The notes under the pieces were generated by a model, which saw nothing but the letters and a program-made list of their open reading frames with translations, had not been told where the DNA came from and searched no databases. This document shows, in pieces, positions 2,503 to 53,025 of a DNA stretch of 64,000 bases. Position 1 is the stretch's first letter, and each line of letters begins with the position of its first letter. A program made the translations under genes and the position numbers. The stretch comes from Amphiscolops sp. MND2022 (taxonomy: Eukaryota), in assembly GCA_964187785.1 (NCBI GenBank), contig OZ076409.1, positions 4,094,001 through 4,158,000 on the forward strand, written 5' to 3'.

Positions 2503-2710
2503 TTATTAAGAAAAAATTATGCATGAAATTGTTTAAATCTACTAGCAACTATGTTATTTATGAATTCTTGCCTATCTTTCGATAATTTTTTCTTGTTCGG
2601 ATTCTTGTTCGCGAAGCTACGCGGATTCTTATACGCGAAGCTACGTGGATTCGGAATATTTTTATGAGATTGTATAATTCTAAATTGAGCTGAATAAGTA
2701 TTAATTTTCT

Positions 2711-3120
2711 TCACTTATTAGTCATGAATAACTGGTAGTATAAGTTTAGTACAGCATTGTTGAAGCCAATTAGGTGTGTAAGAAATAAAATGTATAAACA
2801 AAAAGCTGCACAATAGCTACCATTTTTCTGAATTTGATATTCTGAATAAATACCAGATTTAATGAAACTCATTATGTTAAGTGGAGGTGGACAGCCATAT
2901 GAATCAAAATAAAACTCGTTAACAAACATAACCCAATGTGTTCCTTTAGTTGGATGTAAGTTAACTATACCACTGGTAGTGGTAAACTTATCATCTCTCA
3001 TGTATATTCCACACTCGGTTATGTTCATGAATTTTAAGATTTCTTTTGTTTTTACATTAAAGTTGCTTCATTTGTTAGTCTGTATTTTTCAGCAAATTCT
3101 TTGAGTGATAAATATTTCAT
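2711..3120 (-). pseudogene. Adenain-like cysteine protease (Polinton maturation protease), 5' frameshift
   Basis: Motifs IVNL..GTHWV, YFDSYGCPPP and QIQ..GSYCAAFCL (His/Asp/Gln/Cys catalytic order). Upstream ATG at 3120 is in a different frame. Confidence 0.85.
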
Positions 3121-14398: not shown

Positions 14399-15465
14399 GA
14401 ATTAAAACTCCATGAACTTTTTATATTGCTTTTACCTTGAGATACAAGGTTTTTGTAAATTAAACGGATACATTGCCTTATTGGGAACTATTCCCACATT
14501 TCAATATTACGATAAATGTTTCAATGATGTAAATCCTGGTTTTTTTTAGATTTTAGTTTAATTGTTCCGCATTAGTCTGTTAACGTGAATTTGCTATTCA
14601 CTGTGCTGTAACGATAAAGTCAATGCAAAGCTGAATAGAATTAACTGCAAGGCAAAAAGGAAACGAGTTCAAGTGAACACAACTCTGATTCCGGAAACGT
14701 CACTTGAGCTCAACATTCCAACCAATCACGTTGCTTCATTTTGTTTTACTGGTGCGACTTTAATATAATAGTGAAGGCGTAGTAAGGCCAATTGACTCAA
14801 GGTAATTATTTTAATCTACGCTTTGATCAAACGGCCGATTTCGGCTATTTCAAATAGACACAATGCTGCTACTTTAATTATGGTAGTAACCAACCTATGC
14901 TACTTTAATTGTGATCTTAGTACCAAATTATCGTCTTTGTGCTGTTCTGATGATTTAGTGAGGCTGATATTTCATTAATGGACGAATAAGGCATTTTGCC
15001 CCTTTTCTTCCAATGCTCATCCAATAATTTGGATTTGGCCAATTCCGGCCCTATTATGAAAACGCTGTATTTTACGCTATTATAGTAAATAGTATTGTGT
15101 TGAAGTATCCATAAGACTTTGCATCTATTTTCATTCTTAAGCGAACTCAACCTCACTCATGTGGAGGCACGTGCCGACACCTTTCTGTGAAGTTGAATGC
15201 GTCAAATTCCATTGTTGCATAGTAACACTTGTTGACACCCTAATAATGATGTTTTGTTAGTTATGTTGTTTGAAGTTGCGGTATGAGTTGAATACCTTTC
15301 AAAATTTTGTCTGCTAAATTCCCAGGATATGTAGAATATCGGGAAAATGTCATGTGCATTACATACCTTATGATATCAATCTTGACTAGAAATATGTGGA
15401 AAATGTGAGTGTCATCCACTCAGGGGTATAAATACCGGTGTTTAGCCTGCGTGGGACACAAATCA
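14309..15465 (+). repeat. Right copy of element 1 direct repeat
   Basis: Aligns end to end with 3641-4790. Confidence 0.9.
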
Positions 15466-18400
15466 TGTTGCGATCACGAATAATGTTGCAATTCGATGGT
15501 GATAGTGGTTTGCTGAAGATGGTATGATGAATTGGTGTATACCAGACTTTTCAACTCCCTTGTGTATCAACTGCGTAATCATTTTGTACGCGGTGGCTAA
15601 ATCGGGACATTCAGAAGTAGCAGTGAATGTCATCATTAGGAATCATGGGAGAAAAAATTTTGGTAGAAAATGTGGTTTTAAATAAAGGAAAAGACATCAT
15701 AATTTGATTAGCATATTTTGATAGATTTACTGTCAATGAGTTGATAGCGTTACTTTTTAATAAAGACTAAGAAAGCAACTGATCTAAAATTGACAGACTT
15801 CCCAGGTTTTTGATCTTTGCGAATCTGTGCAGATCTGCAGGATTTTTTCTGCAGGCCTCTGCAAACATCGTTGCACTGAATCTAGAAGATCCATATAGAT
15901 CTGCAGGATCTTTACAGAGGAGGGTAGATTTTCTTTAAAGATTTTTGCAGAAATACGTTTCCTGCAGCTTCTAAGGAACCAATATACTGCATTTTTGGAC
16001 TTCTTTAACTACTTCATCAACTGTTTTAGTTGACCAAGGCTCAGTCGGTTGATCAGTAAAAATTCTCAAGAAGGAAAATTTGTCCCCATCACAGTAGTTT
16101 TGATGACTGGAGAATGCGCCGTATCAGTTATACACCGTAATTTATCCATTTCACTTGAACTTTCCAGAAGTGGTTGTTGAACTTTGGGGAGCTCGTTTGC
16201 GTCCTTGACTTCGTTTTGACGGATGAAATTTGACATGTGGCAACCTTCTGGGTTGGTAGATGTGTTGATAAAGTGTTGTTGTTGTAATATTTCCGGAACA
16301 TGGCTTGTTGGAGTAATTTAAATAACTTCTGGTAACTCGGAATACGTTATAGTAATATATTGGCCATTGTTTGGATCTGTAAAGATCTGTAAAGATCTTC
16401 AAAACTCTACAGATCTGTACAGATTACTGCAGAAAAATGTTTCATCATTTTGCCATAAATTAGATTTCTCTCGAGTTTCAAACATTTTTATTATTCGTTT
16501 GACATTGCTGTGGGGTTTTTATTGTGTTGCTAAGTAGGTCGTTTTTCTTCGAATCTGCACATATCCGCAAAGATCTACAAAAATCCTGCAAGGACTTGTG
16601 GTTTGAAAAAGAAAAGCAGGAGATTTTGTGATTTAAGTTGATCATAAGATGGGTTAGAATAGCTAGGTGTGATGTGGCAAGACAACGTATTCACAGTTCC
16701 CAAGGCAACATTTGTAATAGTTTTTAGTAGGCGCGTTTTCCTTTTAAAGAGAAATGCCCTATTATAGCAGTGACTTTTTTCTTCAGACTACAATCCTCGC
16801 ACTGATCGGCCCACTTGTTAGAAACAATACTGTGATATACCTATACTTTATAATCGATCATCCCCTCTCCACTCATTTGTTGATTGTCTACACGTAGCTA
16901 ATGTATCTTGAAAAAAATAATGTATCTCATTCATATTCAAAACCATACCTACACTCTAAACTAATTATCTGATATTTAACCGCTCACAATTCTAATAAAG
17001 TCTTCACCATCCAGTTGTCATCCTCTCTAAAAGACCTAATATCTGCATCTCTATAAGCGTCCTCTTAAAGTACTTAACATCCCGTCTCTGAAATAATCTT
17101 ATTTTACGCTATTATAGTAAATAGTATTGTGTTGAAGTATCCATAAGACTTTGCATCTATTTTCATTCTTAAGCGAACTCAACCTCACTCATGTGGAGGC
17201 ACGTGCCGACACCTTTCTGTGAAGTTGAATGCGTCAAATTCCATTGTTGCATAGTAACACTTGTTGACACCCTAAAAATGATGTTTTGTTAGTTATGTTG
17301 TTTGAAGTTGCGGTATGAGTTAAATACCTTTCAAAATTTTGTCTGCTAAATTCCCAGGATATGTAGAATATTGGGAAAATGTCATGTGCATTACATATCT
17401 TATGATATCAATCTTGACTAGAAATATGTGGAAAATGTGAGTGTCATCCACTCAGGGGAATAAATACCGGTGTTTAGCCTGCGTGGGACACAAATCATGT
17501 TGCGATCACGAATAATGTTGCAATTCGATGGTGATAGTGGTTTGCTGAAGATGGTATGATGAATCGGTGTATACCAGACTTTTCAACTCCCTTGTGTATC
17601 AACTGCGTAATCATATTGTACGCGGTGGCTAAATCGGGACATTCAGAAGTAGCAGTGAATGTCATCATTAGGAATCATGGCAGAAAAAATTTTGGTAGAA
17701 AATGTGGTTTTAAATAAAGGAAAAGACATCATAATTTGATTAGCATATTTTGATAGATTTACTGTCAATGAGTTGATAGCGTTACTTTTTAATAAAGTCC
17801 ATGAAAGCAACTGATCTAAAATTGACAGACTTCCCAGGTTTTTGATCTTTGCGAATCTGTGCAGATCTGCAGGATTTTTTCTGCAGGCCTCTGCAAACAT
17901 CGTTGCACTGAATCTAGAAGATCCATATAGATCTGCAGGATCTTTACAGAGGAGGGTAGATTTTCTTTAAAGATTTTTGCAGAAATACGTTTTCCTGCAG
18001 CTTCTAAGGAACCAATATACTGCATTTTTGGACTTCTTTAACTACTTCATCAACTGTTTTAGTTGACTAAGGCTCAGTCGGTTGATCACTAAAAATTCTC
18101 AAGAAGGAAAATTTGTCCCCATCACAGTAGTTTTGATGACTGGAGAATGCGCCGTATCTGTTATACACCGTAATTTATCCATTTCACTTGAACTTTCCAG
18201 AAAGGGTTGTTGAACTTTGGGGAGCTCGTTTGCCTCCTTGACTTCGTTTGGACGGATGAAATTTGATTTGTGGCAAACTTCTGGGTTGGTAGATGTGTTG
18301 ATAAAGTGTTGTTGTTGTAATATTTCCGGAACATGGATTGTTGGAGTAATTTAAATAACTTCTGGTAACTCGGAATACGTTATAGTAATTTATTGGCCAT

Positions 18401-19150
18401 TGTTTGGATCTGTAAAGATCTGTAAAGATCTGCAAAACTCTACAGATCTGTTCAGATTACTGCAGAAAAATGTTTAATCATTTTGCCATAAATTAGATTT
18501 CTCTCGAGTTTTAAACATTTTTATTATTCGTTTGACATTGCTGTGGGGTTTCTATTGTGTTTCTAAGTAGATCATTTTTCTTCGATTCTGCACATATTCG
18601 CGAAGATCTACAAAAATCCTGCAAGGACTTGTGGGTTGAAAAAGAAGAGCAGGAAATTTTGTGATTTAAGTTTATCATAAGATGGGTTAGTATAGCTAGG
18701 TGTGATGTGGCAAGACAACGTATTCACAGTTCCCAAGGCAACATTTGTAGAATTGGGGGAAAAACTTGTAATAGTTTTTATTAGGCGCGTTTTCCTTTTA
18801 GGGAAAAATGCCCTATTATAGCAGTGACTTTTTTTAGACTACAATCCTCGCACTGATCGGCCCTCTTGTTAGAAACAATAATGTGATATACCTATACTTT
18901 ATAATCGATCATCCCCTCTCCACTCATTTGTTGATTGTCTAAACGTACCTAATGTATCTTGAAAAAAATAATGTATCTCATTTATATTCAAAACCATACT
19001 TACACTCTAAACTAATTATCTGATATTTAACCGCTCACAACTCTAATAAAGTCTTCACCATCCAGTTGTCATCCTCTCTAAAAGACCTAATATCTGCAGT
19101 TCTATAAGCGTCCTCTTAAAGTACTTAGCATCCCGTCTCTGAAATAATCT
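15068..19150. repeat. Tandem segmental duplication, two ~2.04-kb units (15068-17099 and 17100-19150)
   Basis: TATTTTACGCTATTATAG...CCCGTCTCTGAAATAATCT occurs twice head to tail; the second copy has a ~20-nt insertion near 18750; paralogous ORFs at 16151 and 18184. Confidence 0.95.
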
Positions 19151-19243
19151 GAAATAAAGAAATAACGTCAAATCTAAAAACAAGTACTTCATCTGGTGGG
19201 ACCAAAGCATCTCCTTCTATCCTTCCCTTTTTCTACAACTTTC

Positions 19244-19602
19244 TGTACTAATCACAACGCCGTGATTCGACCAAAAGTCGGTAAAAAATACAAATTGTTC
19301 TGGACTAACCATCTTTCAAAATGGTTCGACCTCGAAGTCGGTACATCTCAAACTTCTGTACTAATCACAAAACAGTGATATAGCTTTTTGCTTTTTTGCT
19401 AGTACAACTTAACCTTCTGTACTAATCACAAAAAAGTGATTCAGCTTCGTGCTGGTATAAGTGTTTTCTGTACTCATCAAGTTGGTTCGACTCTTGTCAG
19501 CACAGTATAAGTACTAACCTTCTTTGATTCGACATTTTGTTGGTACACCCTTTTCTGTACTAACCAAATTTCTCTTTTTGGTTCAACTTTTTTGTTGGTA
19601 CA
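19244..19602 (+). ncRNA. Array of seven predicted three-way-junction RNA motifs (cis-element candidate)
   Basis: Consensus TGTACT-AAYCA-loop-TGRTT-CGAC-loop-GTCG-GTACA, with compensatory changes between units and variable loops. Confidence 0.7.
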
Positions 19603-20454
19603 ACTCATTTCCATATCTTTTGTATAACTTTAATGCCTTCTCTAAATGATTCAGTTAGTATTTCAAAGATCATTTTATACCTTGTTGGCCTACTTGCGAT
19701 TGTCCTTTTCGTTGTCGACAAATTTAGAATTGGTTTCTTTCCCAGATAAATCTTTTTCAACTCTAACCATTGTTCCTCACCGAAAATCTTGCAACTATAA
19801 TCGTTTTTGTTTCATACATTTTTGCCCCGCTTGTTTTTCTTATGCTCCTCGTTGGAACAATAATCACTTCTCTTTTCCACTATTTTCCCAATCACACATA
19901 CCCTTTCCCCATCTTATCTCTTCATAAACTCTATCTTTTTCATATCTCACTCAATTTTAGTATAATCAACTCCTCCTTTATTTAACCACAACTCCATCAA
20001 AATTTCAACTGCTCTCGTTTCATCTATTTATGTTCCTCTTTCAAAGAGAAGTTCTCTTACACTCAAATCCTTTTATCGCTCTTTCGCAACTCCTCATAAC
20101 CACATTTTTCATTCTTCTTTCAAAACCATGTTTTCACTCTTTTCTCTTTCCCCTCACTAAAATCTGTTCCTCAAACTCCACAGATATTTTTATCCACCCC
20201 CAATTGAACCATTGAACCTTCTATTCACCCTGACGTCATTTTTGATAGTGTTTGGTTGACTTATTACCCTCATCGTCATTCATGAAGGATGACCCACCTC
20301 CTCCTTTAATTCCACTTCTTTTCTCTTGATGATTCTCAGAAAGAGTCTACCCACATTGTTGCAACCGTGTTGCAAGTTACTATAGAAGAGATGTGCTAAT
20401 GTAAGATATCGAATCAATTACTTATCGTTATTACACGAAGAAGTATGAAAACAT

Positions 20455-24022: not shown

Positions 24023-24291
24023 TGTACTGACCTACATTAATAACCAATAGTATTTAGATGTTTATAGAATGTTCTAGAATGTACATTTATTTGTTATTGA
24101 ATGATTGTAAATCTCTACTCCTTCAGAGAGAGAAAACTAATAATCAGTTTTCAGTTGACTTCCTTTTAGTTCTGCTCCTGACACCTCGAACTAGTAGTAA
24201 TAAAGTAAGCTAGCTAGCCTGTCTCTCAGCCGCTTTTAGTAGTTGCGTATAAGACCATCCAAAGAACTAACCAACCATTAAAAGCAGCACA
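24023..24291 (+). repeat. 5' LTR of element 2
   Basis: TGTACTGACC...AGCAGCACA; contains AATAAA; I count 7 substitutions relative to the 3' LTR. Confidence 0.96.
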
Positions 24292-24294
24292 ATT

Positions 24295-24310
24295 TGGTGC
24301 GACTTGTAAA
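24295..24310 (+). promoter_or_regulatory. Primer-binding site (tRNA identity not assigned)
   Basis: TGGTGCGACTTG starts 3 nt after the LTR end. Confidence 0.65.
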
Positions 24311-24531
24311 ATTTTTTTTTGCCTTTTCTCCTGGATGATTTCTCTCCTCTCAACAATCATACAAATACCACTCTCCATCTTTGAAATTCTCTGGAATTGC
24401 AGTGAAATCTTTCTAGAATTTCTTGAAAGTTTAGTCTGTGATTTTCTGAACTTCATCAATAAATACATCATCGTTCGAAACACAATTTCTCCACTACAAC
24501 AAATAATTTAAATATAACAAATTTTCTTCAC

Positions 24532-24862
24532 TACCGGTTTATCACGTTTTCTAACACGTTGACACGGTTCTTCCTCCTGTTCTTTTAGCCATACCGGTTT
24601 ATCACGTTTTCCAATACGTTGAAACGGTTTCATTTCGTACTGATTTATCCATTGTGACACAGTTCTGTTTTTCTTCTTTTTCCAGACTGATGTATCCAAA
24701 GTGACACAGTTCTGTTCTCTATACTGATTTAACACAGCTAATCCGGAAGCTTGTTGAAACAGTTCTTTGATGTTTGTCTGGTTTATCAAAGTTTTCTAAC
24801 ACCTTTGACACAGCAACATTTGTCTGGTTTATCAAGGTTTTCTAACACCTTTGACACAGCAA
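24532..24862 (+). ncRNA. Leader array of seven predicted hairpins with a conserved asymmetric internal loop
   Basis: Units (A)CYG-RTTTA-TCA-[variable stem-loop]-TGA-MA-CRG(T), with ACCG/CGGT versus ACTG/CAGT covariation. Confidence 0.62.
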
Positions 24863-26104
24863 CTTTCTTCAATCCTGCTATCTTGAACGTCAGGTGGACT
24901 CCTGGTGTAATAGTTGACTGAGTGCATGTCCAACTCCGCTCACCTATAAGCACATACGTCTCAAGATCAACTTCGTGTTGGCAGAATACCTGGATTTTCT
25001 ACTTTTACGTTTCGGATCCCCTTTTTATAAAATTTCCTACAAAAAAATTTCAGAAACAGACTCTGAAAACAAGAAAAAGGCAACCAAGACTAACTACAAA
25101 AAACAACCACGCACTATTCCTTTTCCTTTCATATTGTCGACAAACAATACAAATAAATTCACAAAACTTAAATAATACAAGCAACTTCAAAACGTTTTCA
25201 ATAACCAACAAAAATAACAATATCAAATAAACTCAACCTTACCTCTAGTACTTCCAATAATAATAGTTTTAACATAATCCTACAAAACAATTATTTTAAC
25301 AAAATACCACATACAATTTTCACAACCCTTTTGCTTTAAAACTTAAAATAAGGCATGTAAATAACACAAACACAGTAAAGTTAGTTTTCTACTTTCAGGC
25401 ACCCACAATTCCTATCCCCTCCCGTAAGACTTAGACAATCAGACAGCCTCACCAGCTTACTCTGATTCTAAGACTGACTAAAAACCTTAGTTAAGTGTAA
25501 ACGTCTTTAAGGAGAATCGAGAGGACACCGAACTACGTTCGAATCTTCAAAATTCTCAGGAAGTAAAAGTAAAAATAAAAGAAACAAAGATCAAACTTTG
25601 ATCGTGATCAGTATTGATCAGACTTTGGATAGTGGACGTTGATTGTTCAGAGTTCCACTCCCTTAGTCTTAAAACACACAACCCACTTAAAATTAAAACA
25701 ACCTTAGTTTTTTCTGGACGTGTCAGTAACCTTATGTTAGACACCTTAAAGTGATCCAGACTTAAAATAACATTTAGTTTCTGTTAGCAATCCTTTGAGG
25801 TTGAATACAGATCCTACTGCACCCGCTTATTTCTTCTCTATCCTAAACTATTAACTTCTCAAATAACTTCAAATTACAATACAACTTATATGAACCCAAA
25901 CCAAGAAATTTATCCTTTCAACTTTTACATTCCACCAATTAGCTCACTTCAAAACCCTACACCAAACGATTTTGAAAGATTAATTGAACGATATCAACGA
26001 TATTTCTTCCTTATCATAAATCAACAAAGAAATTACCCAAGAGCTCGAACTTAGAAAATCTTTATACAAGACATTTCAACGTTATAACCTTCACATTATA
26101 ACAT

Positions 26105-29100
26105 GTGGGAAAAGGTTACCACAGTAGTACTCATTACAACATACACGTTTTGTGTCTTATTTATAGTTTGTGTTCTTCTCGAAAAAATACTTACGGTGAT
26201 AAGAGACAAACTTTAAAAATGACCACAACAACATTTTTACCTTTTCACACACCCATCATTAAAAATGCAAAAGTTGTAATATTAGAACTAAACCCATTTC
26301 TACAAAACATTATTTCACATTATACACAACCACTCCCATTTGAAAATGAACCACACACAATTGAAACAACCCCTCTTATTAGAGAACATTTGGACACATA
26401 CCTTTTCTATATTAGATATAAAGTTTTAACAATCACCGAAGAATACCCAACTTTTCAAATATCCTTTCCTCAACAAAGACTTAATTCATCTCATATATAC
26501 AGAAGAACAATAAACCCAATAAACCTTCAAGTTCCTATTAAACAAGTTTTTCATGCTTTTCTAAATAATGTAAAAGACCACAATTTAGCACACGAAATTC
26601 CAAAATATAGTCCAAATGCACTCGACGATCTTCAACGATACATAGACAATTTCGACGTAGAAATTATTGAAAGATTGGTTAATCCTGAAGACAACCCTCA
26701 TCATTGGTTACAAGCTGATATATTACGAATTCAAAATTTCATCTACCATTACTTCAAAGACCTAACATTAAATGACCAAACAATTCCTCAGATCAAAGTA
26801 ATATCTTTATTTCTCAGAAAATACTTCAGATTTAATTATCAACTATTATGGTCCCAACAAGATCAATCTGCTTTTACAGCATTTCCAGATCATTTTACAT
26901 TAGAAGAATGTTTACCATTCATCATCAGTGAACAAAATGAACATCCCTACTTTCATAAACCACAATTAATTACAAAACAAACCTTAGATTACATACGTTT
27001 CGATCCTCTATTAATTACAGAAAATGATCTATTCGCAGATAATAGACCTTACCACTATCAACAAAATTCTCAAGATCAACAAAATTTACATTTTAACACT
27101 AACAATTCTACTGAAGATGATAACACCGATCAGGAAAACACAACCCAACAACAAAATCAATCTGAAAACTATAACGATAATGAGTTTACTACCCAAGAAT
27201 CTACAATTTCAACACATAATCCATCACAAACAGGGACATCAACATCAGTACATACTCACTCCTTTAGAGTTCCCACTAGAGTTGTAAACCAAAGACAAAC
27301 TACACATAGTCCTCAATCTCACTTAGCTACATCTCCAAACCGTAATATAACTTTTAACCTTCCACATACAGATGACATACACGATGAAACCCATGATACA
27401 TTACAATATGATACTATGACTACATCTAGTGCTCAGAATATTTCTGTTAATGTTGCATCTCCAACAAGAACTACCTCTGATTCTACAAGATACATTACTC
27501 GACCTAGATATGATCCTCCATCAATTCCCTCCGCCTTTCGCTCAAACAGATCGACCACTTCTAGCAACAATTTTAATGATAATCCTCAAACTTCCAACCG
27601 ATATTACGATCCATTTAATTATAACTTTTATCCCCCATCAAATACAACTAACAATACAAATACCAACCAACACCACTCTCAAATTAATACAATTTCAACA
27701 ACACAGAACCCCTTCATACAATCATCAAATACCAATACGTCCCAGAATATATATTCTCAAAACCAAGGAACCTCGTGTACTTCCACTTCTTATTCTAATA
27801 TTACACAGGATTCTCAAAGAAGACTTCATAATCCTCCACTTACACATATCCCAACTGATCCTCTGTATCAAACGCATCCAAATCCAAATCTTAACCCTAA
27901 TCCTAACCCATTACCACCAAATACAATCCAACATATACCTCCACCACTCACACAACAATTAGCTTCTCCACCCCAATATCTACCAGTGCCACAAGATACC
28001 TTTATAAACATGTCCGCTTCAATACCAGAACCTATGAAACCTTTTGATGGTTTGGACCATTCTTACACCCCCGAAGAATATCTACAACAAGTCGAAGCAA
28101 GATTAACCTTCGCCATAGGTGAAGAACCTCAAAATAATCCTATGAAATACAAATCTTGGCATAATAGACGCATGGCTTACATACAATGTTCATTAACAGG
28201 AACAGCTCTCGATTGGTACACTAACCTCCATATATCATATAAACAACAATGGAATTCCTTTGTACAACTATTCAAAAAACAATTCTCATCTCAAAAAACT
28301 GCTTACTACGCTCAAGTAGAAGCTATGTCACTCATGAAAAAGGATAATGAAACAGTTCGCCACTTCGCCCTTAGAGTACAACAATTAGTTAGAAAGGGAT
28401 GGTGTAATGAAAATGCAGCTACCATAAATCTCAAAAATAATGAAATCTTTACAAAAGGGTTACCAAAGAAGTTAAAAGATTTTGCCCATAAACGACAAGT
28501 TAAACATGTATCAACATTACTTGAACCTTCAATACCATTTCATACACTTGTTAGACATGTCGATTCTGAAGATATTGCTAATGAAAAAATCAGAACTAAC
28601 GACTTAGCCCTAGAAATAAACAAAGTATCGCTTGAAGAGGATACTAACAAAAAAGAATTTGAATATGAAGATCAGATAATGGTTACTCAAACTGGAGACC
28701 CAAATAACAAAAGCAAACCAGCGTATAGAAAATAATGTTCCTATTGTCACAAAAATAATCATAGTATTTCAAATTGTTATCAAAAACAACGTGATGACGA
28801 ATACCAGAAATACAATAACCAAAGATCACGAACTCCTCAACAATCCTTTGTACAATATTTTCGCAGTAAACCTAATAATCCTCAGGAAAATCGAAATGAC
28901 AATACAAACTCTTACTCCTCAGATAATGATCGTAATAAATATAATCAAAACTACTATAATGATAGATACAGAAACAATGATAGATATCGTAGCAATAGTA
29001 GAAAATATTCGCAAAACAACTATAGATCAAACTCTCGACAAAGATATTATAATCGATCCCGAAGTCCATATAGATCTCGATTTGATAATTATTATCAAAG

Positions 29101-32100
29101 AAGAACTCCATCTAGATCTCCATATAGACCTCCATACAGAAATAACTCAAATTACAGATATAATTCTCGCTCAAGATACAGATCTCGTTCTCAATCACAA
29201 GGAAACTCATTTAAACGATATAATTATCGATATAGCTCTCCATCAAGACCTAGAGATTTTAGAACAAGATCTAGAACACCCTCAAGAAACAGACAACAAA
29301 ACAGAATAAATCAAGTAGACGTTAAATCTGCAAAAGAAAATGATAGTACAAAATTTGAAATCCACACCTGTCAAATGACTGAAATAGCTAATACAATCAC
29401 CCCTTATAGTTGGTTTCATCCACTATATATTCACGCTTCTGAAACAAATGATAACATATTATCTTCAAAATTAGAAATCTTATTCCTCTTAGATACTGGA
29501 GCTTCCATATCTGTTTTGAATTTACCAACATTTCATGTAATTTCCAAACAATTAAACATCAATGTTCCAACTAACCTCCAAAACAAAAGAGCCAAAACTC
29601 TTACAGTTGCAAACCAAACTGAAGTACCAATAATACATTATATTTCGATGACCTGTTTCACTGAAGTAAATCACAAAACACGATCCTTCAATATTGATTT
29701 TGCCGTAGCAAATATCAAATACAACATTCTTGGAACACCCTTTTTCAAAAAGCACATCCAAAATATTGATTTTCAACAAAACATTATGACGTACACAGAA
29801 CAACATCCAAAGCTTTCAACAAAAACTACATTTTCCACATTTACAGAAAAAGATTACCCATATATTTCTTACATTTATACTATTAAATGTAAGGAACCAA
29901 TTCACTTTAAACCAAGGTCAGGAAAAACCATACATTTTCCAATTAAAAACTATTCAAATCTACATTTTGAACTCGAAGATAATACGAAGTTCTACCCAAC
30001 AAACCCATATACATATTTCTTACAAAAATTCAAAAATATCTTTCATTTCTTAGATATGATAGTCAATGAAAAAAGCAAAGACTCATGTGCAACCATAATT
30101 CAAAACTTTACATCTTACCCAGCTACATTACCACGAGGAATTATTGGATATATAGAAATACCTATTACTCAAACAACTCCTCCTCACTACAGAGTTAACG
30201 ATGTAAATTCACTTATTCACTCTGTAATACATGCATATCACCCTGATACCACAACCCCGATTAAACAAAATCCATATACAGATATGAACTTATGTACTAG
30301 GGTAATACCACAATCCCTATTAGAAATAAACAAGATAGAAATTAACGACAAAACACTTCAACTTCCTATACCTTCTGTTACTGGAAACCTTCGACCTTCA
30401 GATAAAATTCGAAAAGATTTCCCTCCATTACCCTATTCTACAGAAAACCAACAATTCATAAAGAAGTTCAATTTCGAATACTCAGATTTAACCGATACAG
30501 AATATGTAAATCTCTGCAATATTCTAATTAATAACCAAAATTGTTACGTCAAACATAAAAATGACGTAGGAAAGATTTCTACTCCCTTTCGAATTAGAAT
30601 TAAAGATAATTGTAAACTTCACACACAAAGACCTTCTAAAGTACCTATCCACTATAGAGATAGACTAAATAAACTTTTACTAGAACTCGAAAAATACAAC
30701 ATCATAAAACAAATTGGTTCAACAACAGATGAAAAACATACTATTGGAACAACATTTTTAAACCCTTTAATTATTATCCCAAAAGGAGACGCAATAAAAG
30801 TTGTTTTAGACGCAAGACATTTAAACTCAAACACTAACCAAGAACTTGAATCTTGGCCTATTGAACCTTTAGCTCCTCAATTAGCTAGAGCTAATAAAAA
30901 ATACAAATCAACTATTGATCTAATGTATGCATATGCTCATACACCATTAGATGAAGAAACAATTAAACTTACAGGATTTTCATCCGGTGACAAATTATAC
31001 GCCTTTATCCGTGGATTTTACGGATTAAAAGGACTTCCAAACTTTTTCACAAAACAAATGTCAACTTTCTTTAGATCACTTATAGACAAACGTTCTGCGT
31101 TAGTTTATATAGATGATATTTTATTACTCGCAAATGAAAAACAAGAAATGTTTGAACTTATAAAAGAATTACATACAATAGCATCTCGAGAATATCTCAA
31201 ACTTGCACCTGAAAAATCGTTCTACATGTTACTCAAAGTAAAATTCCTTGGACATGAAATTGGTAACAACACAATTAAACCAATTCCATCCAAAATTGAA
31301 GCTATTAAAAGAATACCATCACCAAAAGAAAAGAAAGATGTTATGCAATTTTTTGGCAGTGTTAACTTTTATTCAAAATTCATTGAAAAACTTCATATAA
31401 ACCTTAAACCATTGTATACATTACTACATGATGATGTTAAATTTCAATGGACACCTGAATTAGAAAAAATATTTCAAAATGTTAAAAACGTAATGACAGC
31501 AGACACTGAATTAACAATACCCAACACCACGCATCCATTTTTCATAACAGTAGATGCTTCGTTAGTAGGTTTAGGCGCAGTCTTATTCCAAATGAACGAA
31601 GAAAATAAGATGAAATTAATCTCTTATAACTCCAGAATTCTCAATACACAAGAACAAAAACTTTCAACTTTAGACAGAGAACTTCTTGCAATAGTTTACG
31701 CATTGCAAATATATAAATTTTTGATCATTGGATCCCCCCATTCTATATATCTCTTCACAGATCACAAGCCTTTACTACATTGTTTCGCAAAGAAAAGAAA
31801 TCTTAGTCCTAGATTCTATAGAGCACAAATGCAACTAACCAAATTCTCCAAATTAAAAATCATTCATACCCCTGGAAAAAATTTAACTGTAGCAGATATG
31901 CTTTCAAGAACCTTTACAAAAGAACAGCTACAAGTACACCAATTACGACACAAACAATTACCACCTCAAATAGATTTCTCTATCATGAAAGATAATCAAC
32001 TCAAACCAGTACATTATTTAGTAAAACATGAAGAAATAAAATATAATCAAAAGAATGATTGTCATCCTATCCTTGCTGACTACGGAGACGACCAATTCTC

Positions 32101-34516
32101 CATCCGTATAAATAACAAAGGAGAAGATATACATATAAAGCCTTTAGATTCCTTCTCTTTTCAATCTATTGTTCCATTCGAATCAAAATATAAAAAGCCT
32201 ACAAAAAACCAAGCAAAATCTCTTTTACAACAATCGACAATTCTTAATGATACTGACATTCTTAGTGATGGAGATGAAATAACATCATCAAATAATATCC
32301 AACAACAAAACTCGAACATAGTAAAAGAACACACCCTTGCTATACAATATCCTACCAAATCTGACTATTGTAAACAACAAGTTCTATTTTTTGATCCATC
32401 CTTTTTCAAATACATAAAATAATTTAATTACTTCTTCCTACCAGAAGATACACAAATAACCATTGAAACAATAAAAGCTCAACAAAATCAAGATACTGTT
32501 TTACAAAAGGTTTACCAATGGATACTTAATAATGAAAAACCCTTACAAATAGACCCAACAATTGCAGCTAACTCTTTCTTATTAGTATATTACAAACTCT
32601 TCAACCAATTATATATTAATCATGATACAAAAATTATCCATCTTGATCCATTTTTTGATCCATCCTTTTTCAAATACATAAAATATTTTAATTACTTCTT
32701 CCTACCAGAAGATACACAAATAACCATTGAAACAATAAAAGCTCAACAAAATCAAGATACTGTTTTACAAAAGGTTTACCAATGGATACTTAATAATGAA
32801 AAACCCTTACAAATAGACCCAACAACTGCAGCTAACTCTTTCTGATTAGTATATTACAAACTCTTCAACCAATTATATATTAATCATGATACAAAAATTA
32901 TCCACATAGATTATCCTAATCTTCACGATTCCAACCCGAATCAAAGAGACAAAATATGTCTACCATTTAAACTTTTCCACACAGCTTTTAACAAACTTCA
33001 TGCTCATGGACATTCAGGAATAAAAATATCCATCAAAGCTTTCAACCAATTTTACTTCATACCGTACCTGAATAAATGGATGTCAATATTCATCCATGAT
33101 TGCATTGAATGCCAACAAAATAAACATATTAACCAAAAATTACAAACGGCATCTATACAAACCTTCTCACAAAATGCTTCATATTTTAATTACCGAATAT
33201 CAATGGATACAAAAGGACCTATAAACCCACCATCAAATCAAAATTCATACATTCACGTTATAGTAGACGCTTTTAGTCACTTTGTAGTAACAGTACCCAT
33301 AAAACAAAATAATGCTCAAAACGCTGTTAACTCATTACTACATCATTGGATAACAAAATTTGGACCTCCTGTATACCTAGTTACCGACCGTGGAACAGAA
33401 TATATTAATTCAGAATTTGCAAATCTTTGTACCACAATGGGAATTAGACATTCACCAAGAACTCCTTATGCACCATGGACAAATGGTTTAGTTGAAAATC
33501 AAAACAGAAATCTTGGAACTCATCTCAGACTTTTCTTACATAACACTCCAGAAAATTGGTCAACTCAAGTCCATATGTATGCTTATGCACATAATTCACA
33601 ACCACTTTCTGAATTAAACGTATCTCCATATGAAATAGTATTCCATACTATACCCAGAATTCCAATCAACTTTGAACTCAATCTCCAAAGAGATACATAT
33701 AGAAATTGTACCTCTCAATATTGTCAAGAATTACCACTTCATACACACTATGAAAAATCAAATCTAAACCCTTTCTTTCATAAAATTTTATCTAAACCAA
33801 TTCCACAATGGATCTTAGCTACTGAAACTGCTATGATACAGATATACCATACGGTATATGAAAACACAAAAAGAAAGATTAATTCCTATGCTTATTTTAA
33901 CAAAACATATCACAATCCAAGACCCTTAGATATTGGTACATTTGTACTAAAAAGAAATTTTCTCCATGTTCATTTTTCCGATAAATTAAAACCTCTCAGA
34001 ATTGGCCAATTCAAAATTATTAACAAACTCTCCGACATAACATATGAAATTGTTAATCAAGATGGTTATACATCGCACATACATAGAAATCATTTAATTC
34101 CTTATCATCCAAAAGAACCAGTTATTTTCCCTTTCATACAACAATATAACCCTCATTTATTTAATGACTGTCATTCAAATACAAACGATCAAATAATTAA
34201 CTCTGATGAAGACAAATTTACAGACGAAGAACAATTTCCTTCCACAACATCTAATAAAGAAACGGATATACCATCCACGATTGACTTACAACCAGAACCA
34301 TTTAACCAATATTCTTCATTTCCATATAAACAAAAAGAACAAATTCCTCAAAATACCTCCCTGGATAACCAATCAGATTTTCATGACTATGGTAATTTTA
34401 TTAATCCCCGAAGACACTCCTATAATAGATACGATTTCCGCCCACAACCAAGAAAAGACTACCGACTCTTCCTTGGTGAAAAGGATATAATTTCACTTTC
34501 TCAAAAATCCTGCTGA
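26105..34516 (+). pseudogene. gag-pol: Single-frame gag-pol polyprotein of element 2 interrupted by two in-frame TAA codons
   Basis: ORFs 26105, 29375 and 33080 share one frame. Capsid-like PFDG..PEEYL..LTGTALDWY..ETVRHF; knuckle CSYCHKNNHSISNC; LLDTGAS; VLDARHLN, YIDDILL; TVDAS..DRELLAI..TDHKPL; HAHGH..CIEC, SMDTKGP, TDRGTEY, NGLVEN. Stops at 28733 and 32420. Confidence 0.93.
32386..32904 (+). repeat. In-frame 264-bp tandem duplication between RNase H and integrase
   Basis: ATTTTTTGATCCATCC...AAATTATCCA at 32386-32640 and 32650-32904; copy 1 has TAA where copy 2 has TAT. Confidence 0.93.
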
Positions 34517-36156: not shown

Positions 36157-38733
36157 ATGAACCAAATCACCTTTACCTTTTATTTAATATATATAATACA
36201 AGTTGTTAAATACACGTATATAATAAATATAGTTCACTCTTTAGTTCACCCTTCAACTGTTCCCAAAGTTGACACCACCAATTCCGAAAATCATATTTCA
36301 GACCAAGACCCTAACATTTTAAACTTAATGGTATCTCATTATAATTGTGCAAAACAAAATAACTTAAGACAATTCAGTTTATTAAATGTAGAACCATGTA
36401 AACAAGCACCCTCAGATATACAACACACAAAAACCCAAGCAACAGTTTATGTTAGAGCAAAAGCCAAAAGAATAAAAGCCTTTAAATGTGAAGCATATAT
36501 AAAGACTGAGAAAGTCTGGTGTTCACAAACATTCACATCTAGTAGACGATATGATCGTTTACAATGGGGACAAAACACATTAGAACTTCCAAAAATATTG
36601 GACCCTATTGAATGCAAAAATATGATCAGATATTTAAACGCGACTGATAGCGAAGAATTAAACAACTACAATATACAAAGCTCTTTCTCATTGTTCGACG
36701 ATAGTAATTATCAAAACACAATTGAACGAATTCAGACACCATTTAGAGTAAAAAAATTAAATACATGGCATATTGGAACCTTCGTATTTGACGAAAATTA
36801 TCCTGATTGGATAGTTAATGTTACACAAAATACATACTCTAGATGTCGATCAGACCGCGAACATTTAATTACCCGACAAAGTTGGAAACTTAGAATTGTT
36901 AACACCGCAATAGATTATGACGATAAAAACAATCAATTAATACATGACGGACACATATTACAATGTTATCATTCAGACGGATTTTGTAAACCAACGACCA
37001 AAACTCCATATACATTAACATGGTTTGATGAAAAATTTTGCCTCATATTTCAACTTCCAGAATTCATTGGTAGACTGACACGAATCAAAGATAGATATTG
37101 GATAGAAACCGATACCTTTATTGAAACTTCAAACATCACACAAAAACTTCAAACCGAAGGAATACAAGGAACAAAATACCCTAATATAAAAACACCACAA
37201 TCAAAAGTAAGCAATCCAAGCCTTTCTCGATTTGAAATATACCCAATTGCCCAAACCTTCTGTGGAAAACCTGAACCATTATTTTCAACACAATATGATG
37301 ACATCTTTGTTACATACTTAGATGGTTTTGATATGAACACAGGATTACCAAAACCACACTCAATAATTGACCAAACAATCAGTGGAAATATAAAATATGA
37401 TGATTCAAACAAAAGGTATATATTCCCTGCATTGAATATATCAAACAATTTTGCCACTTTAGACTATGATGCCCACATTAATACAAAGATTGATTTCACA
37501 ATAAATCATGTATTTAAAACCATGACAGTACAAGAACTAAACACTCTTCATACAATATGTGAACTAGAAAGAACTCAACTGTTAACAATCCTAGCAATGT
37601 CAGTTAAAAATCCTCAATTAGCCGGTTTTCTTTTAACTGGAAATCGTAGTAACTTTCTCTACGTTGAAGGATCTACAGCATGGCTGTATGATTGCCCTCA
37701 TTTTATATCACCACTATACAAGGCAGATAAATGCTTTGATAGAATTCCTATACACTACAGAGAAACGATAATGTATGTTGACCCAATAACAAGACAAACT
37801 TTTAACTACGCAACACCAATTGAATGTGGAAATAACCCACAAAATATAATAGAATTAGATCCAGATTCCAACGACGGAGATTTTTATGTGTTAACACCAG
37901 AACCACTCAAACGAGAAGCACCACAAATGTTTAAACCTACCCAAATTAAAACAACAATCACTCCTAATACATTTACCGCCCAAGATGCCGGTATATACTC
38001 AAATGCAGAATTAGATCAATTCTGGAATAGAGTATTTTTCGCTAAACATTAAGACACAACTCTTCAATTACTTGGAAAATCATTAAGCTATGATTTCATT
38101 TCAATGCATAATGAAAAACACTCATACTCAGGACATAATCCCTATAATCATTTAAGGAGTGGAGTACATGACAACTTGTTAAACCTTTTACCACTTTTTA
38201 ACCCTGACTGGTTCAGTCAAGCATTCATTAATTTCTCTGGATACCCATGTTATGTTTTAACCCAATGTGGAATTTATTTTTCAACATTCCTTTTCATTAG
38301 AGAAGTTTTAACATTTTTACTAAAATTCTACAGAACAATTAGCATAAAATATAATCTCCAAAGCAACATTTCCATTTTGAGTTCAATAGCCCAAGGATTT
38401 TTTAATATAGTTACATTGGAAATGGTAGCCGATTTAAATAATACAGGAAAACGAAAACGGATATATACTAAACACAAAATTACAACAAGTGAAAATGATA
38501 ATATCCTATTGCCGGAAAAAGAATTAAACAATAAACGAAGACACTCTGATACTGACTCCCCTTATTTACCTCCTAAATATTCCAGTAAGAATTCAACATT
38601 TCAATCACCGCAAAAGACACACCCAACTAATGTAAACGATATTAATTCTCAGGACTATGACCCAATAATGTCAAATGTAATAGCGGTACCGGAAAGTCCT
38701 GCTGAAGTTTTTATAAAATTTAATCCCTCCTAA
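36157..38733 (+). pseudogene. env: Envelope glycoprotein, chuvirus-G / herpes gB-like class III fusogen, one in-frame stop
   Basis: Hydrophobic N-terminus, Cys-rich ectodomain, ICELERTQLLTILAM..NPQLAG...WLYDC..CFDRIPIHY..YVDPITRQ..PIEC, C-terminal transmembrane stretch and tail. TAA at 38050 where the paralog has Ser (KHSD). Confidence 0.82.
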
Positions 38734-39149: not shown

Positions 39150-40442
39150 ATGGAATCCTTGCCCGAAATTGATGTAGTTAACTCTAATCCCTCTGAATTG
39201 CTTGCATCCCCTTTGAATATAACTATTCAACAAAATGTTAACGAAGATAAAAACTCTTCCTCCAACTCTCAAGACCCTATAAAAAATATTCCTATTGAAC
39301 AAGTAGATCATGTTAACACAAGATCTCAAAAAAGAAAGTACCCAGATAAAACCGCAGATAAAACTTTTATGGAATCTGGCGCTTGCCCTCCTTTCCTAAA
39401 ACCAATTAAACAAGATGAAGATAGAGATTGTGAATTAGTTCCTATTCTCTCGTCAAAACAATTCACCTTTCAATCTCAGTTAACTTGGTTATACATGATT
39501 CCAACAAAATACAAATTCATCATCAGAGAATTTAAAAATGATTATCATACATCAATTGCTTCAAAATTGATTACCCCATATGATTGGTGGTTAAACAATA
39601 AAGTGAAAATTTTCTCACTTCAATACAACTTCCTCAGACCTACTCCATATGATCTTCGAACAGAAGAAAATGATGCAAATTTTTTGCCATACCAAATCAA
39701 AAAGGCCCACCATATGACTTATCAAAAGTTTCTTCAATATAAAGAGCCCGATAATTATATATTCTTCAACTCCAAATATACATCGCCATTCACTTTCAAC
39801 TCAGAATATTTAATAGATCATACCAAAACAAAAGGAAAACTTCGAAACTATGACCCGCTGAAACAAAGTTTTCTCTTTCTTCCAAATGATAACCCAAAAA
39901 GACCAATCATTTTACCACAAGAATACCTCATTCTAAACGACGATTCGTTACTACAAGAAGATATACCTCAACATATATCTGATCCTCTTCCTCCACTTCA
40001 ACATATAGCCTCTCAACCTTTGGGAGACTGTGAAAAGTCTTATTTTCACGCAATGATCAAAAAGGGATATTCAAATAATGAATTAATTTTCATTATTTCT
40101 CACCTGCTTTCACTTCTTACAAATGGAAATCACAAAGAATATAAAAAGGCAAAACAAGAATCGCCTGAGAAAACCAAAAATGATATTCCTCAACCACAAA
40201 GTTTTCGCCCAACAGATGAATTACAGGAATATACAGAAATCCTGAATATCATAAAACCGTATCATCATCCAAACCGAGATATTCTTATAACAATCGCTGA
40301 AATCGTAAATACCCTTGAACAAGCCCGAAGCATAATACAAAATATCGTATTTGATACGACAAGAATTAGCCAATCAGCTTTGTGCATTCGCACATCCTTA
40401 GACGAATTCAACTACACTATTGAAAAAATGCATCGATCTTAA
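39150..40442 (+). CDS. Accessory ORF4, 430 aa, unknown function, conserved in element 3
   Basis: Intact ORF; blocks QLTxLYMxPT, TSIASK, VKIFSLQxNFLRP, KYTSPFT, LRNYDP and PQEYLI are shared with 60841-62253. Confidence 0.85.
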   Translation: MESLPEIDVVNSNPSELLASPLNITIQQNVNEDKNSSSNSQDPIKNIPIEQVDHVNTRSQKRKYPDKTADKTFMESGACPPFLKPIKQDEDRDCELVPILSSKQFTFQSQLTWLYMIPTKYKFIIREFKNDYHTSIASKLITPYDWWLNNKVKIFSLQYNFLRPTPYDLRTEENDANFLPYQIKKAHHMTYQKFLQYKEPDNYIFFNSKYTSPFTFNSEYLIDHTKTKGKLRNYDPLKQSFLFLPNDNPKRPIILPQEYLILNDDSLLQEDIPQHISDPLPPLQHIASQPLGDCEKSYFHAMIKKGYSNNELIFIISHLLSLLTNGNHKEYKKAKQESPEKTKNDIPQPQSFRPTDELQEYTEILNIIKPYHHPNRDILITIAEIVNTLEQARSIIQNIVFDTTRISQSALCIRTSLDEFNYTIEKMHRS

Positions 40443-40960: not shown

Positions 40961-41437
40961 ATGACAACTATTCACTCTGGCGACATTGACTGCCCGATAG
41001 CTCCAATTCTTTCAACCTCTTCAGCTCGATTGCGATCCTTGATACTGAAAAAGCATTTAACGACATTAAATGCGCAGCTTCGAACAGACAAAAAGGCACA
41101 CCCACATCTTACAAGGATGATATTGCTTAATATGTTCCAAATATTCCAAATAACAAGAATAAATTTCGACCAATATCTCCATATTCATAAACATCCCGAC
41201 ACTTATTCAACTCAAAAGGATGCCACTACCCAAACAGAACATACTACCATCAAACCCAAACGTTTAGTACGAACTCTATCCAATAGAATGCGTTCCGAAA
41301 TGGAAAAACAACGTCTAAATTCTTATTGGCCCTCAGATGACAATGATGACACTGACGAAGACCTTCAAAAAGATCCTCCAGAAGCACTTTTAGACGATAA
41401 CTATCCGCACAAAACATATACTTACGTTTCCTTCTAA
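40961..41437 (+). CDS. Accessory ORF5, 158 aa, unknown function
   Basis: ATG-initiated ORF with an acidic tail; its N-terminus resembles the ORF at the same position in element 3. Confidence 0.6.
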   Translation: MTTIHSGDIDCPIAPILSTSSARLRSLILKKHLTTLNAQLRTDKKAHPHLTRMILLNMFQIFQITRINFDQYLHIHKHPDTYSTQKDATTQTEHTTIKPKRLVRTLSNRMRSEMEKQRLNSYWPSDDNDDTDEDLQKDPPEALLDDNYPHKTYTYVSF

Positions 41438-42491: not shown

Positions 42492-42760
42492 TGTACTGAC
42501 CTACATTAATAACCAATAGTATTTAGATGTTTATTGAATGTTCTAGAATGTACATTTATTTGTTATTGAATGATTGTAAATCTCTACTCTTTCAGAGAGA
42601 GGAAACTAATAATCAGTATTCAGTTGACTTCCTTTTAGTTCTGCTCCTAACACCTCGAACTAGTAGTAATAAAGTAAGCTAGCTAGCCTGTCTCTCAGCC
42701 GCTTTTAGTAGTTGCGTATAAGACCATCCAAAGCAATAACCAACCATTAAAAGCAGCACA
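42492..42760 (+). repeat. 3' LTR of element 2
   Basis: Copy of 24023-24291, preceded by AAAACCGGGATGGA and followed by TAAA. Confidence 0.96.
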
Positions 42761-42764: not shown

Positions 42765-45700
42765 TATATGCATATTGGATTTTAGTCTGAGTCAGGAGTA
42801 GTTTCGTGGAAATGTGATGTGAAAAAATATGATGGAAAGTTTTTCAATAAAATTTCACAGCATAAAACTTTCACAGCATAAAATAGTGTGAAAGTTAAGC
42901 AAATGCGAGTCTGGTTTGTATATTGTTGAGATTTAGTGTGTAAAATTGTATGAGATGGGAGTTACTGTCAATATAAGTGTTGAAATTGTTTATGATGTGT
43001 TGAAAAAGGCACTGGCTTTAAAGAAAAGAATTACAATTGGAAATTTTTGTTTTTTTTTCATCAAGTCATAGACGTTAGAAAGCACGGGGTCGTTTTGGGC
43101 TGGTAAAAAACTTTGAAAGGTTAAAAGTGTGTTGGAAGGTAAGCAACAGTTGAAAAGTGCTGCAATGAGCAAAAAAGATGGAACAAAAAATGGTGAGAAG
43201 TCTTCATGAACTTTTTCTATTGAAAGATCTGGTTTTAGTTAGGTGACATCAAAATGGTTGTGGTGTTTTATGTTTTAATTCAAAGGATTTAATCGTGATT
43301 GTAGAGGAATGGAGAAATGTAGACGCAAGTCAGCAACGGCTAAGTTGGATCCAGCGGTATGTACAAATCTGAGGTTTGAGAATTTGGTTATTAACATTTG
43401 AGCTTATATATTTTGTCTGTCTGTGAGGTTACCATTTATTGGATTTTCGTTAGTAAAAGGCCTTATTGGGACTTTTGACCCAATAAATAGAAATTCATAT
43501 GTTGTGAGATCAAGGATAAAAGCACAGCGTTCTCGGTCAAATTTTAAAATATTTTGTTCTTGAGTATTTAAATCACGAGATGTACAAAAAACTAACATTT
43601 GTTTATGGAATTAGGTCGTAATCAAATTTCGGCCAAAACAATTAGGGAGGCGTCTACTGTGCGGTAGAACAGGTGAGACGTATTGAAGATGGCAAGCTCT
43701 ACATTTTTTTGCAAAACGTTTCAACCTCATTGAAGAGTTTCGGCCATATCTGGAGCCCATTCAAGAGAGATATTATCATGAGGAAGGGTATAAAAAAGTG
43801 ATATTTTGAGTTTGATATTAAATGTGGTGCTGGATTCTATTGAACCAACAAATCACATTGCTTTAATTTTCGAAGTGGGAGTTTTTGATTGATGAATACC
43901 AAATACTTTAGGTTGCATGGGTTTATTAGTGTTATTTTGAATTGCACGTCCAAAGAAACTAACAGTGTGGATGATAAAAATGATTTTCCGAAAGCAACTG
44001 TAAACGTATAAGTATTGGTTTAGTGAAATATGAGTACACTAGTTGGTGTAAATGTTCAATAGGGCAATCATGTGAGGTTTAGTGTGAGCTAGAAGCAGTA
44101 CGTCATCAATTTGGACGAGCGCGAAGCCTTCATCAATAGGTTTCTTTAATAATGAGTACATTTGTTTTTTGAAAAATTGCTCCTCCCAAATCATAAAAAC
44201 CTCGAGTAAATGCAGGGGGATTATCATGAGATGAAAAGTGTGTGAGAGTTATTGTTCCTTCATCAAGCGGAACATGTGCAAAAGCGTACATGAGGCCAAT
44301 GGCGGTTCAGAGTTTTTTGTTACCTCGGGTCAGTTGAGGGGCTAAAGATTCTATTCGTGAAGATTCAAAAAATTGATCAGCTTTAGAAAGTAGGTGACTA
44401 TCCTCTCAATCATTTGAATAGTATCTCTTTTGGAAATACAATTGAGAAGACTTAAAAATACAGTTCCATGAGAGAGAATGAGAGCTTTTTTTTCGAATTA
44501 TCTTATGATGTTCAGGTTCATCAAGAAGTTTTTGAAAATTTCTCTCGGTACTGATTAAGATCTTCAGTGGGTTGTTGACGTTGGAGTTTCAAATTAGAAT
44601 TGAGACGGATTGTAAAAGGGGTAGCTAGATTGCAAAACAAGATTGCGATGGCATAGCTGTTTTGATCTTCACCAAGTATGAAGCAAGGTTGAAATTATTT
44701 ATCATTTGGGAAATCAGAAAACCAAAAACTAAGTTTGTAGCGGAGTTTTTGAGTTTCAAGCGAATAAGGAAGGGAAAGTTTTTTGTAAGGAACTCCCTAC
44801 AAAAACGACGAGTAGGGAGTTCAGGATCAAAACGATTTTCATATATTGAATGGAAAAATGAGAGATCTAAAGAATTTACATCGTTAATTGGTTACTGGGG
44901 GTTTTAATATACTTGTCAGGTACTTCGATATATTCAATCCAGCCTGGCGGAAACATGCGTCATTTTTGATTCATCACTGAACAATTGTGTTGCTAAATTT
45001 GAAGGAAATAAAACATAGAATTCAGGCGTGTATTAAAATTGTGTATGGAATTGCCGGCAAGACTGTTTCGTTTTCTGATCAGTGGAATGATAATGGTGAT
45101 GTAGGTTAAACATGAAAGTAAATAACTAGCGCTCGGTTTAGAGTAATGTTTTTAGTGAAATCGTTTTCTCTTTTTGCAATGAGTGAAAGAATAATGGCGT
45201 TTGATTCATGAGGTTTGTTAAAAGTTATGATCATATTTATAATTTAAGGCATTAACAGATTTTTGTTCACGTAACGGACTGCCAAGGAATAGACTTTTAG
45301 TATCTGCTACTAAGAAGGGCACAATTAACGTTCGAGTGTTTCGAAGTTGTTTAGTTAGTGATAAAATCGAAGTTAGTAAAAAGAAAAAAGGCAAAATGGT
45401 AAAACTGTATGAGGTGAAGAGAAATATTGTCACAAGATTTCCGGTGAGAAACATTGGAGAAATACAAACCTAATATTTTTTGGGCGTTGAAATCAAGAAT
45501 GAAATTGTCGGCTACAAGTTCAATGAGTGCAAAAGTTTCAAAAAGGTACAAATTATCATTAGCATACAAAGAAGATCATTATTCGGGGGCGTTAATTAAA
45601 ATCGGAACTGTATTGCACAGACTGAAATGTCGAGGTGAAGAATTTTGGTTAGTGCAGAGGAACGGATGTACCGACAAAGATGTCGAATCACTTGCTTGTT

Positions 45701-46100
45701 GATTAATAAAGAAAAGGATGATGTGTACCGACAACGAAGTCCATCAACTTTTTTATAGTTAGTACACAAATGATTTTTTTCACGGATAATTATTATCGAC
45801 CAAATATGTTTTAGTCCACTTGGGGGGGGGGTGGAGTCCACTTGGCCGCACCAGAGAAAGTATTTGTGTTTTGTTCGATAGTTTTTAATATCTTAGATTA
45901 CGATTGAACGGGGGGCAAGTGTATTTTAAGGAGACACTAACAGAGCTGCAGTAATAGGTCTAAGAACAACTGGAGACGAAGAGACGAAGATTTTCTTTGC
46001 CGTTCTTGTGGTGGTATAAAACAGAATTCCTTTACAATTCAATAATAGAATGTATTAGGTGATCAATACGACGTAGAGTGAATTATTATTGTGAGACGGG
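42765..46100 (-). mobile_element. Heavily decayed pol (degenerate PR, RT, RNase H) of a relative of element 2, with leader and junction array but no visible gag
   Basis: Fragments PFLVADTKSLFLGSP, PPGWIEYIEVP, INDVNSL, MYAFAHVPLDE, ALVQIDDVLLLA, LNTQEQ..DRE and AQNDPVLSNVY are colinear with element 2 pol. Confidence 0.8.
45612..45770 (-). ncRNA. Second copy of the three-way-junction array (about three degraded units)
   Basis: The minus strand reads e.g. AATCA-acaagcaag-TGATT-CGAC-atcttt-GTCG-GTACA. Confidence 0.6.
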
Positions 46101-53023: not shown

Positions 53024-53025
53024 TT

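Follow-up and report, generated by a model that had tools for sequence, protein, structure and literature searches.

A reiterated hairpin array in the 5' leader of a giant envelope-bearing gypsy-type element, a candidate RNA docking signal

Introduction

What does a run of seven similar hairpin-like units, placed between the primer-binding site (PBS) and gag of an envelope-bearing LTR element, do for the element that carries it? The question is raised by a stretch of 64,000 nucleotides from the assembly of Amphiscolops sp. MND2022 (GCA_964187785.1, contig OZ076409.1, positions 4,094,001 to 4,158,000, forward strand), hereafter the window, in which an initial annotation had read such a run as a reiterated packaging or export signal and had proposed that related elements may each carry their own structured array, a possible RNA identity code. 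Packaging and export signals of envelope-bearing gypsy elements are little described. In RSV, the signals A-psi, M-psi, and micro-psi comprise several stem-loops between PBS and gag (available sections of PMC5035971), and the Drosophila gypsy insulator packs 12 Su(Hw) sites into a 340-bp part of the 5' UTR (PMC3383448, the accessible part of which also names 5' UTR repeats of ZAM, Idefix, and gtwin).

Results

The host of the array is an 18.7-kb LTR element of the gypsy type with a class III envelope. Its 5' LTR (24023–24291, plus strand), with TG...CA ends, and its 3' LTR (42492–42760, plus strand) show 7 differences over 270 aligned nucleotides, and the element is flanked by a 4-bp target duplication, TAAA. 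In the 5' LTR, AATAAA abuts a strong donor-like GTAAGC at 24205, poly(A) signal and donor overlapping within 24199–24211. The PBS-like word TGGTGCGACTTG occupies 24295–24306 (plus strand) and reads TGGTGCGAC from 24295; no tRNA genes were found in the 64-kb window. A leader of 1.9 kb with eight upstream ATGs precedes the gag ATG at 26219. The gag-pol region (26219–34516, plus strand) encodes Gag (Retrotrans_gag; its capsid region is followed by a CCHC knuckle and a long tract rich in Arg and Ser), a protease-like motif, reverse transcriptase (RT), RNase H, and integrase, in the RT-RNase H-integrase order of gypsy elements, and env, coding for a class III fusion glycoprotein, is placed downstream of pol (36157–38733, plus strand). 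The Pfam matches in the element are PF03732, PF00078, PF17917, PF00665, and, for env, PF24664. Behind env lies ORF4 (39150–40442, plus strand), a conserved 430-aa protein with 220 homologues, one cluster of 705 members, and 432 representatives at E ≤ 0.001, which matches at 40% the ORF4 of a second element in the window (60841–62280, minus strand). ORF4 matched no known family, and its predicted structure (pLDDT 34.7) has no recognisable RNA-binding fold. A small ORF behind it (40974–41437, plus strand) has no Pfam or PHROG match.

The LTRs, the target duplication, the PBS, and the gag-pol-env order make this an envelope-bearing Ty3/gypsy element (an errantivirus in the sense of PMC13524379). 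As had been annotated, it is full-length and has an envelope gene, but this copy is not intact: in-frame stops and a 264-nt duplication disrupt gag-pol, and env is broken by a stop. With its Ty3/gypsy gag-pol, class III env, LTRs, and PBS, the element resembles the HSV/gB-type “ancient errantiviruses” of PMC13524379 as far as the available sections describe them; it differs in its 18.5 kb between LTRs and its extra ORFs, and that survey excludes LTR pairs more than 14 kb apart. The terms “UTR,” “stem-loop,” and “acoel” are absent from the main text of that paper, and term searches of its supplements did not turn up the PBS-like word. Close homologues of the element's proteins were found only in ENA assemblies, in clusters of 163–1183 members, and hits with a named source are at most 35% identical. 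Protein searches found no relatives in IMG/VR, JGI, or GTDB, nor did a pattern search of IMG/VR; the sole JGI match lies singly in a telomere-capped contig lacking array or retroelement context and was judged to be due to chance.

Of the second, related enveloped element the window contains the 3' part (60841–64000, minus strand), with an env of 71% nucleotide identity and the leader outside the window, and a young BEL/Pao element (52074–60694) with LTRs 99.8% identical and an open polyprotein of 2088 aa contains a 24-nt tandem repeat (53163–53367). Three repeats of about 60 nt with GGGGGAC/T-run words lie at 46889–47057. A 2-kb tandem duplication at 15068–19150, with GATCTG microrepeats inside it, begins with a 398-nt segment common to the repeat at 3641–4790/14309–15465. 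Several short ORFs at 167–3067 (minus strand) look like what we take to be Maverick/Polinton-type genes.

The array itself spans 328 bp (24533–24860) between PBS and gag. The annotated seven units some 240 nt after the PBS are indeed there, the first starting 238 nt after it, and the basal stems are those described: ACCG/CGGT in U1 and U2, ACTG/CAGT in U3–U5, and CTG/CAG in U6 and U7. All units lie on the plus strand and belong to four types. U1 (24533–24568) and U2 (24593–24628), a 60-nt duplicate of U1 with 77% identity, form one type, and the short U3 (24639–24663) and U4 (24686–24710), which are 90% identical, have no apical stem and form another; just before U4 runs a pyrimidine tract with CAG at its end. 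U5 (24723–24763) is the most stable unit and stands by itself, and U7 (24823–24860) is a 46-nt tandem copy of U6 (24777–24814) with 96–97% identity. Common to all seven is a basal stem of 3–4 bp with the core RTKTAWC...TGAMA, the gap between the two conserved core halves ranging from 5 to 21 nt. The units follow each other at periods of 60, 46, 47, 37, 54, and 46 nt, separated by spacers, 89 nt in total, that are 50–86% pyrimidine (80–86% in four of the six). A protein-coding repeat was rejected, the periods not all being multiples of 3 and all six frames containing 4–10 stops. Degenerate 21-nt palindromic repeats lie between PBS and array (24381–24428).

A search pattern of the core plus three complementary flanking bases matched seven times on the plus strand of the window, always within the array, and once on the minus strand, as compared with a mean of 0.5 and a maximum of 3 in 30 shuffled windows; the pattern was derived from the units themselves and demonstrates clustering only. 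Covariance model R1 scored the seven units at 33.9–60.1 bits, a match by construction, and the next match at 14.1 bits, so that this model reveals no eighth unit. No Rfam family was matched at the gathering threshold (0/6 and 0/3 weak matches). In a kink-turn, tandem G.A/A.G pairs come after a bulge of 3 nt, and direct reading of both strands failed to find this arrangement.

Folding energy gives the array little distinction. Folding no better than shuffled controls had been named in the initial annotation as an outcome that would refute its reading, and this is what was found for the whole array on the plus strand (z −0.29; 40 of 100 shuffles as good). The minus strand (z −1.71) does better, also when spans are limited to 50 nt (z −2.4 vs −1.3 on the plus strand), and of the seven units folded singly on the plus strand only U5 is significant (z −3.7). 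In a leader context of 730 nt, basal-stem probabilities range from 0.03 to 0.98 in unrestricted folding and reach 0.58–1.0 only if pairs are limited to 60 nt; the best-folding window of the leader lies elsewhere (25582–25701, plus strand, z −3.8). The RNAalifold consensus of the units retains the basal stem alone. Covariation among the seven units is thin, one of nine pairs being two-sided, and a control slid by one position scores higher (0.159 vs 0.127). Weak intrinsic energy would be compatible with units that are stabilised by a protein.

Above the basal stem, the details of the annotated hairpin hold in part. The asymmetric loop of RTTTA opposite MA is one of two registers: UGA pairs with UCA, leaving this 5x2 loop, in 91.2% of cells, or with UUA, leaving a 2x2 loop plus bulge, in 93.9%, and pairing probabilities are mixed between the two; in U4 the left loop reads ATGTA. 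The TCA/TGA step exists in four of the seven units, U3 and U4 having TCC and U5 having ACA. The variable apical stems of U1 (p 0.039), U2 (p 0.037), and U7 (p 0.013), with 4–5 Watson-Crick pairs, are significant by shuffling, those of U5 (p 0.14) and U6 (p 0.17) are not, and U3 and U4 have none. MAFFT misaligns the apical arms, and U1 and U7 were compared by direct reading: around an identical 10-nt loop segment, TTTTCTAACA, the arms are CG/CG in U1 and AGG/CCT in U7, and the third pair of the basal stem is C-G in the former and T-A in the latter.

Contigs from four of seven public runs (X1, X2, X3, and X5), one of them a marine metagenome, were aligned on 24280–25120 and show that the array is present in other runs. 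Coverage of the array by X1 and X2 contigs is incomplete, and its gaps carry no weight; X3 and X5 have many variants in common, which limits their independence, and X1 is possibly close to the source. Among the substitutions listed (40 of 70), 13 fall in the array: seven in spacers, one in a loop, two to a letter common to other units, and three in basal stems. None of these 13 breaks a stem, for of the three in basal stems one creates a G-U pair and the other two together turn a T-A pair into C-G. In one X5 contig both sides of a U6 basal pair are changed, the second side being read from the loose end of the contig. Among the indels listed (12 of 33), ten fall in the array, six in spacers, three in apical loops, and one at a terminal mismatch. 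In total, 13 of the 23 listed array variants lie in spacers (binomial p 0.003, with rows that are not independent). Summed depth in X3 was 1381 over U1 and 1579 over U4 vs 127, 7.6, and 2.8 in neighbouring bins that consist largely of spacer, which suggests that relatives align on the units and not on the spacers, depth being no measure of copy number. Contig joints indicate that units were skipped, reordered, gained, or lost in other copies. A palindromic dimerisation loop is a feature of retroviral psi, and the apical loop of U5 in the window copy carries the self-complementary hexamer TCCGGA; the X3 loose-end consensus has a non-palindromic loop, and the hexamer could easily be due to chance.

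Directly 3' of the array lies a single three-way junction with a long inserted arm (24875–24984, plus strand), composed of the helices CUGC/GCAG, followed by a U bulge, AUCUUGA/UCAAGAU, which holds the inserted arm, and CAAC/GUUG. The inserted arm (24887–24960, plus strand) contains a CAGG/CCTG hairpin as well as the alternative pairings GTTG/CAAC and TGAGTG/CGCTCA, which could form a pseudoknot. Folded alone, the junction shows pair probabilities of 0.8–1.0 for most of the pairs listed, and in the full leader context it is unstable in five of six settings. Among the variants listed, none lies in its three helices; the inserted arm has seven, of which one breaks a pair.

Junction units also follow other PBSs in the window. 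Array B (19243–19604, plus strand) has seven three-way-junction units beginning 49 nt downstream of the PBS at 19194, and array C (45612–45768, minus strand) has three, 85 nt after a PBS at 45853. Element C retains an RT remnant 38–61% identical to the focal Pol, and no coding remnant was detected for element B. Across the ten units, 6 of 14 pairs are two-sided and covariation reaches 0.300, a score reached by none of 500 shuffles and compared with at most 0.076 in slid controls, the junction structure having been defined by us from the same sequences that were scored. The structural case for arrays B and C is stronger than that for the focal array. Counts of G-U (5) vs A-C (6) in the junction units do not pick a strand. 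Many B and C units read TACTAAY, which we take to be a branch-point or STAR-protein-like word. A junction descriptor restricted to Watson-Crick pairs matches at 24875–24984 and in none of 300 shuffled leaders (7 of 300 with G-U pairs allowed), covariance model R2 recovers the focal junction weakly (13.8 bits, E 0.71), and models R1 and R2 give no cross-matches between hairpin and junction units. The focal junction is of the same type as those of arrays B and C, and the focal element combines a private array with one shared junction. The proposal that related elements carry structured arrays of their own is borne out insofar as B and C have arrays after their PBSs, but these two share one type; the identity code is likewise only partly upheld, the focal element having one copy of that same junction.

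Discussion

The array is probably a structured cis-acting RNA, its function being predicted from sequence, and we consider it likely that structure in it is under selection. Its position, its pairing-preserving variation, its presence in other runs, and the distinct arrays B and C fit a reiterated cis-acting RNA signal, as the initial annotation had proposed; folding energy and a covariation limited to one pair weigh on the other side. Repeats, position, pairing-preserving variation, and the shared junction are directly observed. Folding in vivo, action as RNA, binding of Gag, and a role in packaging are what we infer from them. We assign a probability of about 0.45 to the specific reading that the array, lying where psi would, is a reiterated protein-docking signal and has the element's own Gag as its most probable reader.

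Under this model, the array would act on the unspliced genomic RNA of the focal element. Each unit would form a modest hairpin with one invariant internal-loop module on a short basal stem, the module consisting of R.A and U.M mismatches beside a UUA/UC/UGA segment that may slide between two registers. The apical part would be a dispensable, variable cap, and pyrimidine-rich spacers would keep the units apart. Units presumably arose by repeated tandem duplication, with number and order differing between copies. Hairpins that are weak and repeated, keep one module invariant, leave their caps free to vary, and are set apart by unstructured spacers resemble multivalent protein sites. A multimeric protein, most probably the Gag of the element itself with its CCHC knuckle and Arg/Ser-rich tract, could bind many such weak sites with avidity. 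Arginine-rich tracts of this kind read widened internal loops. Gag binding would then mark the RNA of about 18 kb for packaging, and the downstream three-way junction may be an older module common to the lineage. Speaking against packaging, NC sites of retroviral psi are G-rich and the array loops are pyrimidine-rich.

All of the structural evidence applies equally if the same RNA structure has another reader, a host or accessory protein such as ORF4 that exports, localises, or translationally controls unspliced RNA in the manner of CTE or RRE, a possibility that we hold as tentative. The donor-like site in the LTR means that unspliced RNA may need an export signal, the 1.9-kb leader has its eight upstream ATGs, and ORF4 is conserved. 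Known RNA export elements are mostly located in env or the 3' UTR, however, and ORF4, with its low-confidence structure and lack of family matches, offers no recognisable RNA-binding fold. CTE and DR are precedents named in the available sections of PMC5035971.

It is unlikely, in our view, that the array acts at the DNA level as a set of transcription-factor sites, an insulator or enhancer in which hairpins would be incidental. The weak folding energy fits such sites, and the array contains more of certain words than expected, namely WGATAR (4 vs 0.79), TGACA (5 vs 0.85), and the T-box-like TNACACCT (2 vs 0.05), in copies that are not independent and with assignments to factor classes that we presume from familiar motifs. 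The array is also, as in gypsy-type insulators, a reiterated motif in the 5' UTR: like the Su(Hw) sites of Drosophila gypsy and the repeats of ZAM, Idefix, and gtwin, its degenerate units cover some 330 bp immediately interior to the 5' LTR in a gypsy element with env (328 vs 340 bp; PMC3383448, available part). In contrast to those DNA sites, the focal units vary with pairing kept, and a distance of 5–21 nt between conserved halves would hardly be tolerable for a DNA-binding dimer; two-sided stem changes find no explanation in a DNA site, and the neighbouring junction arrays covary strongly.

It is quite improbable that slippage in reverse transcription expanded one quasi-palindrome neutrally, with the paired changes brought in by template switching. 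The near-identical pairs U6/U7 and U3/U4, the joints at which units were gained and lost, and the scarcity of formal covariation speak for it, but the core stays constant where spacers and caps have diverged, and structured repeats occur at the same place in three elements. Moreover, template switching perfects palindromes, whereas here the bulges and the internal loop persist. That the array controls splicing, its pyrimidine tracts with terminal AG (near 24589 and 24685) and CTAAC words in the loops of U1, U6, and U7 serving as decoy acceptors, seems very improbable to us, for even though the branch-point consensus resembles CTAAC and the TACTAAY of arrays B and C, both found by direct reading, and four of six spacers are strongly pyrimidine-rich, CTAAC varies in U2 and in other runs and is missing from the focal junction.

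Repeated internal loops or hairpins serve as multivalent protein sites in HIV RRE and TAR and in the Xist A-repeat, the latter with U-rich spacers. The focal array shares with these and with the MPMV CTE the repetition of protein sites, and with the A-repeat the kind of spacer, and it differs from them in position and in having no sequence or Rfam match. As in retroviral psi, including that of RSV, several stem-loops lie between PBS and gag of an element that encodes a CCHC-knuckle Gag; retroviral psi, in contrast, is a set of unlike hairpins, whereas here one internal-loop module with pyrimidine-rich loops occurs seven times (compared with PMC5035971, available sections). No such array is described, for env-bearing gypsy elements or otherwise, in the literature covered, which consisted mostly of papers outside subscription and included the accessible part of PMC6451197.

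A repeated and naturally varying module is its own alignment, from which the geometry recognised by a protein can be read. More speculatively, the lineage of giant enveloped gypsy elements may build its genome-selection signal from small RNA modules reiterated after the PBS, an ancestral three-way junction, present once in the focal family and 3–7 times in others, plus family-specific arrays such as the focal one, so that module type and copy number would form an RNA address code that works by avidity and evolves together with Gag. If this were true, families within one host would sort RNAs according to the type and number of their modules. Family copies number in the hundreds, so that co-evolution of RNA signal and Gag among co-resident families could be tested directly in this genome.
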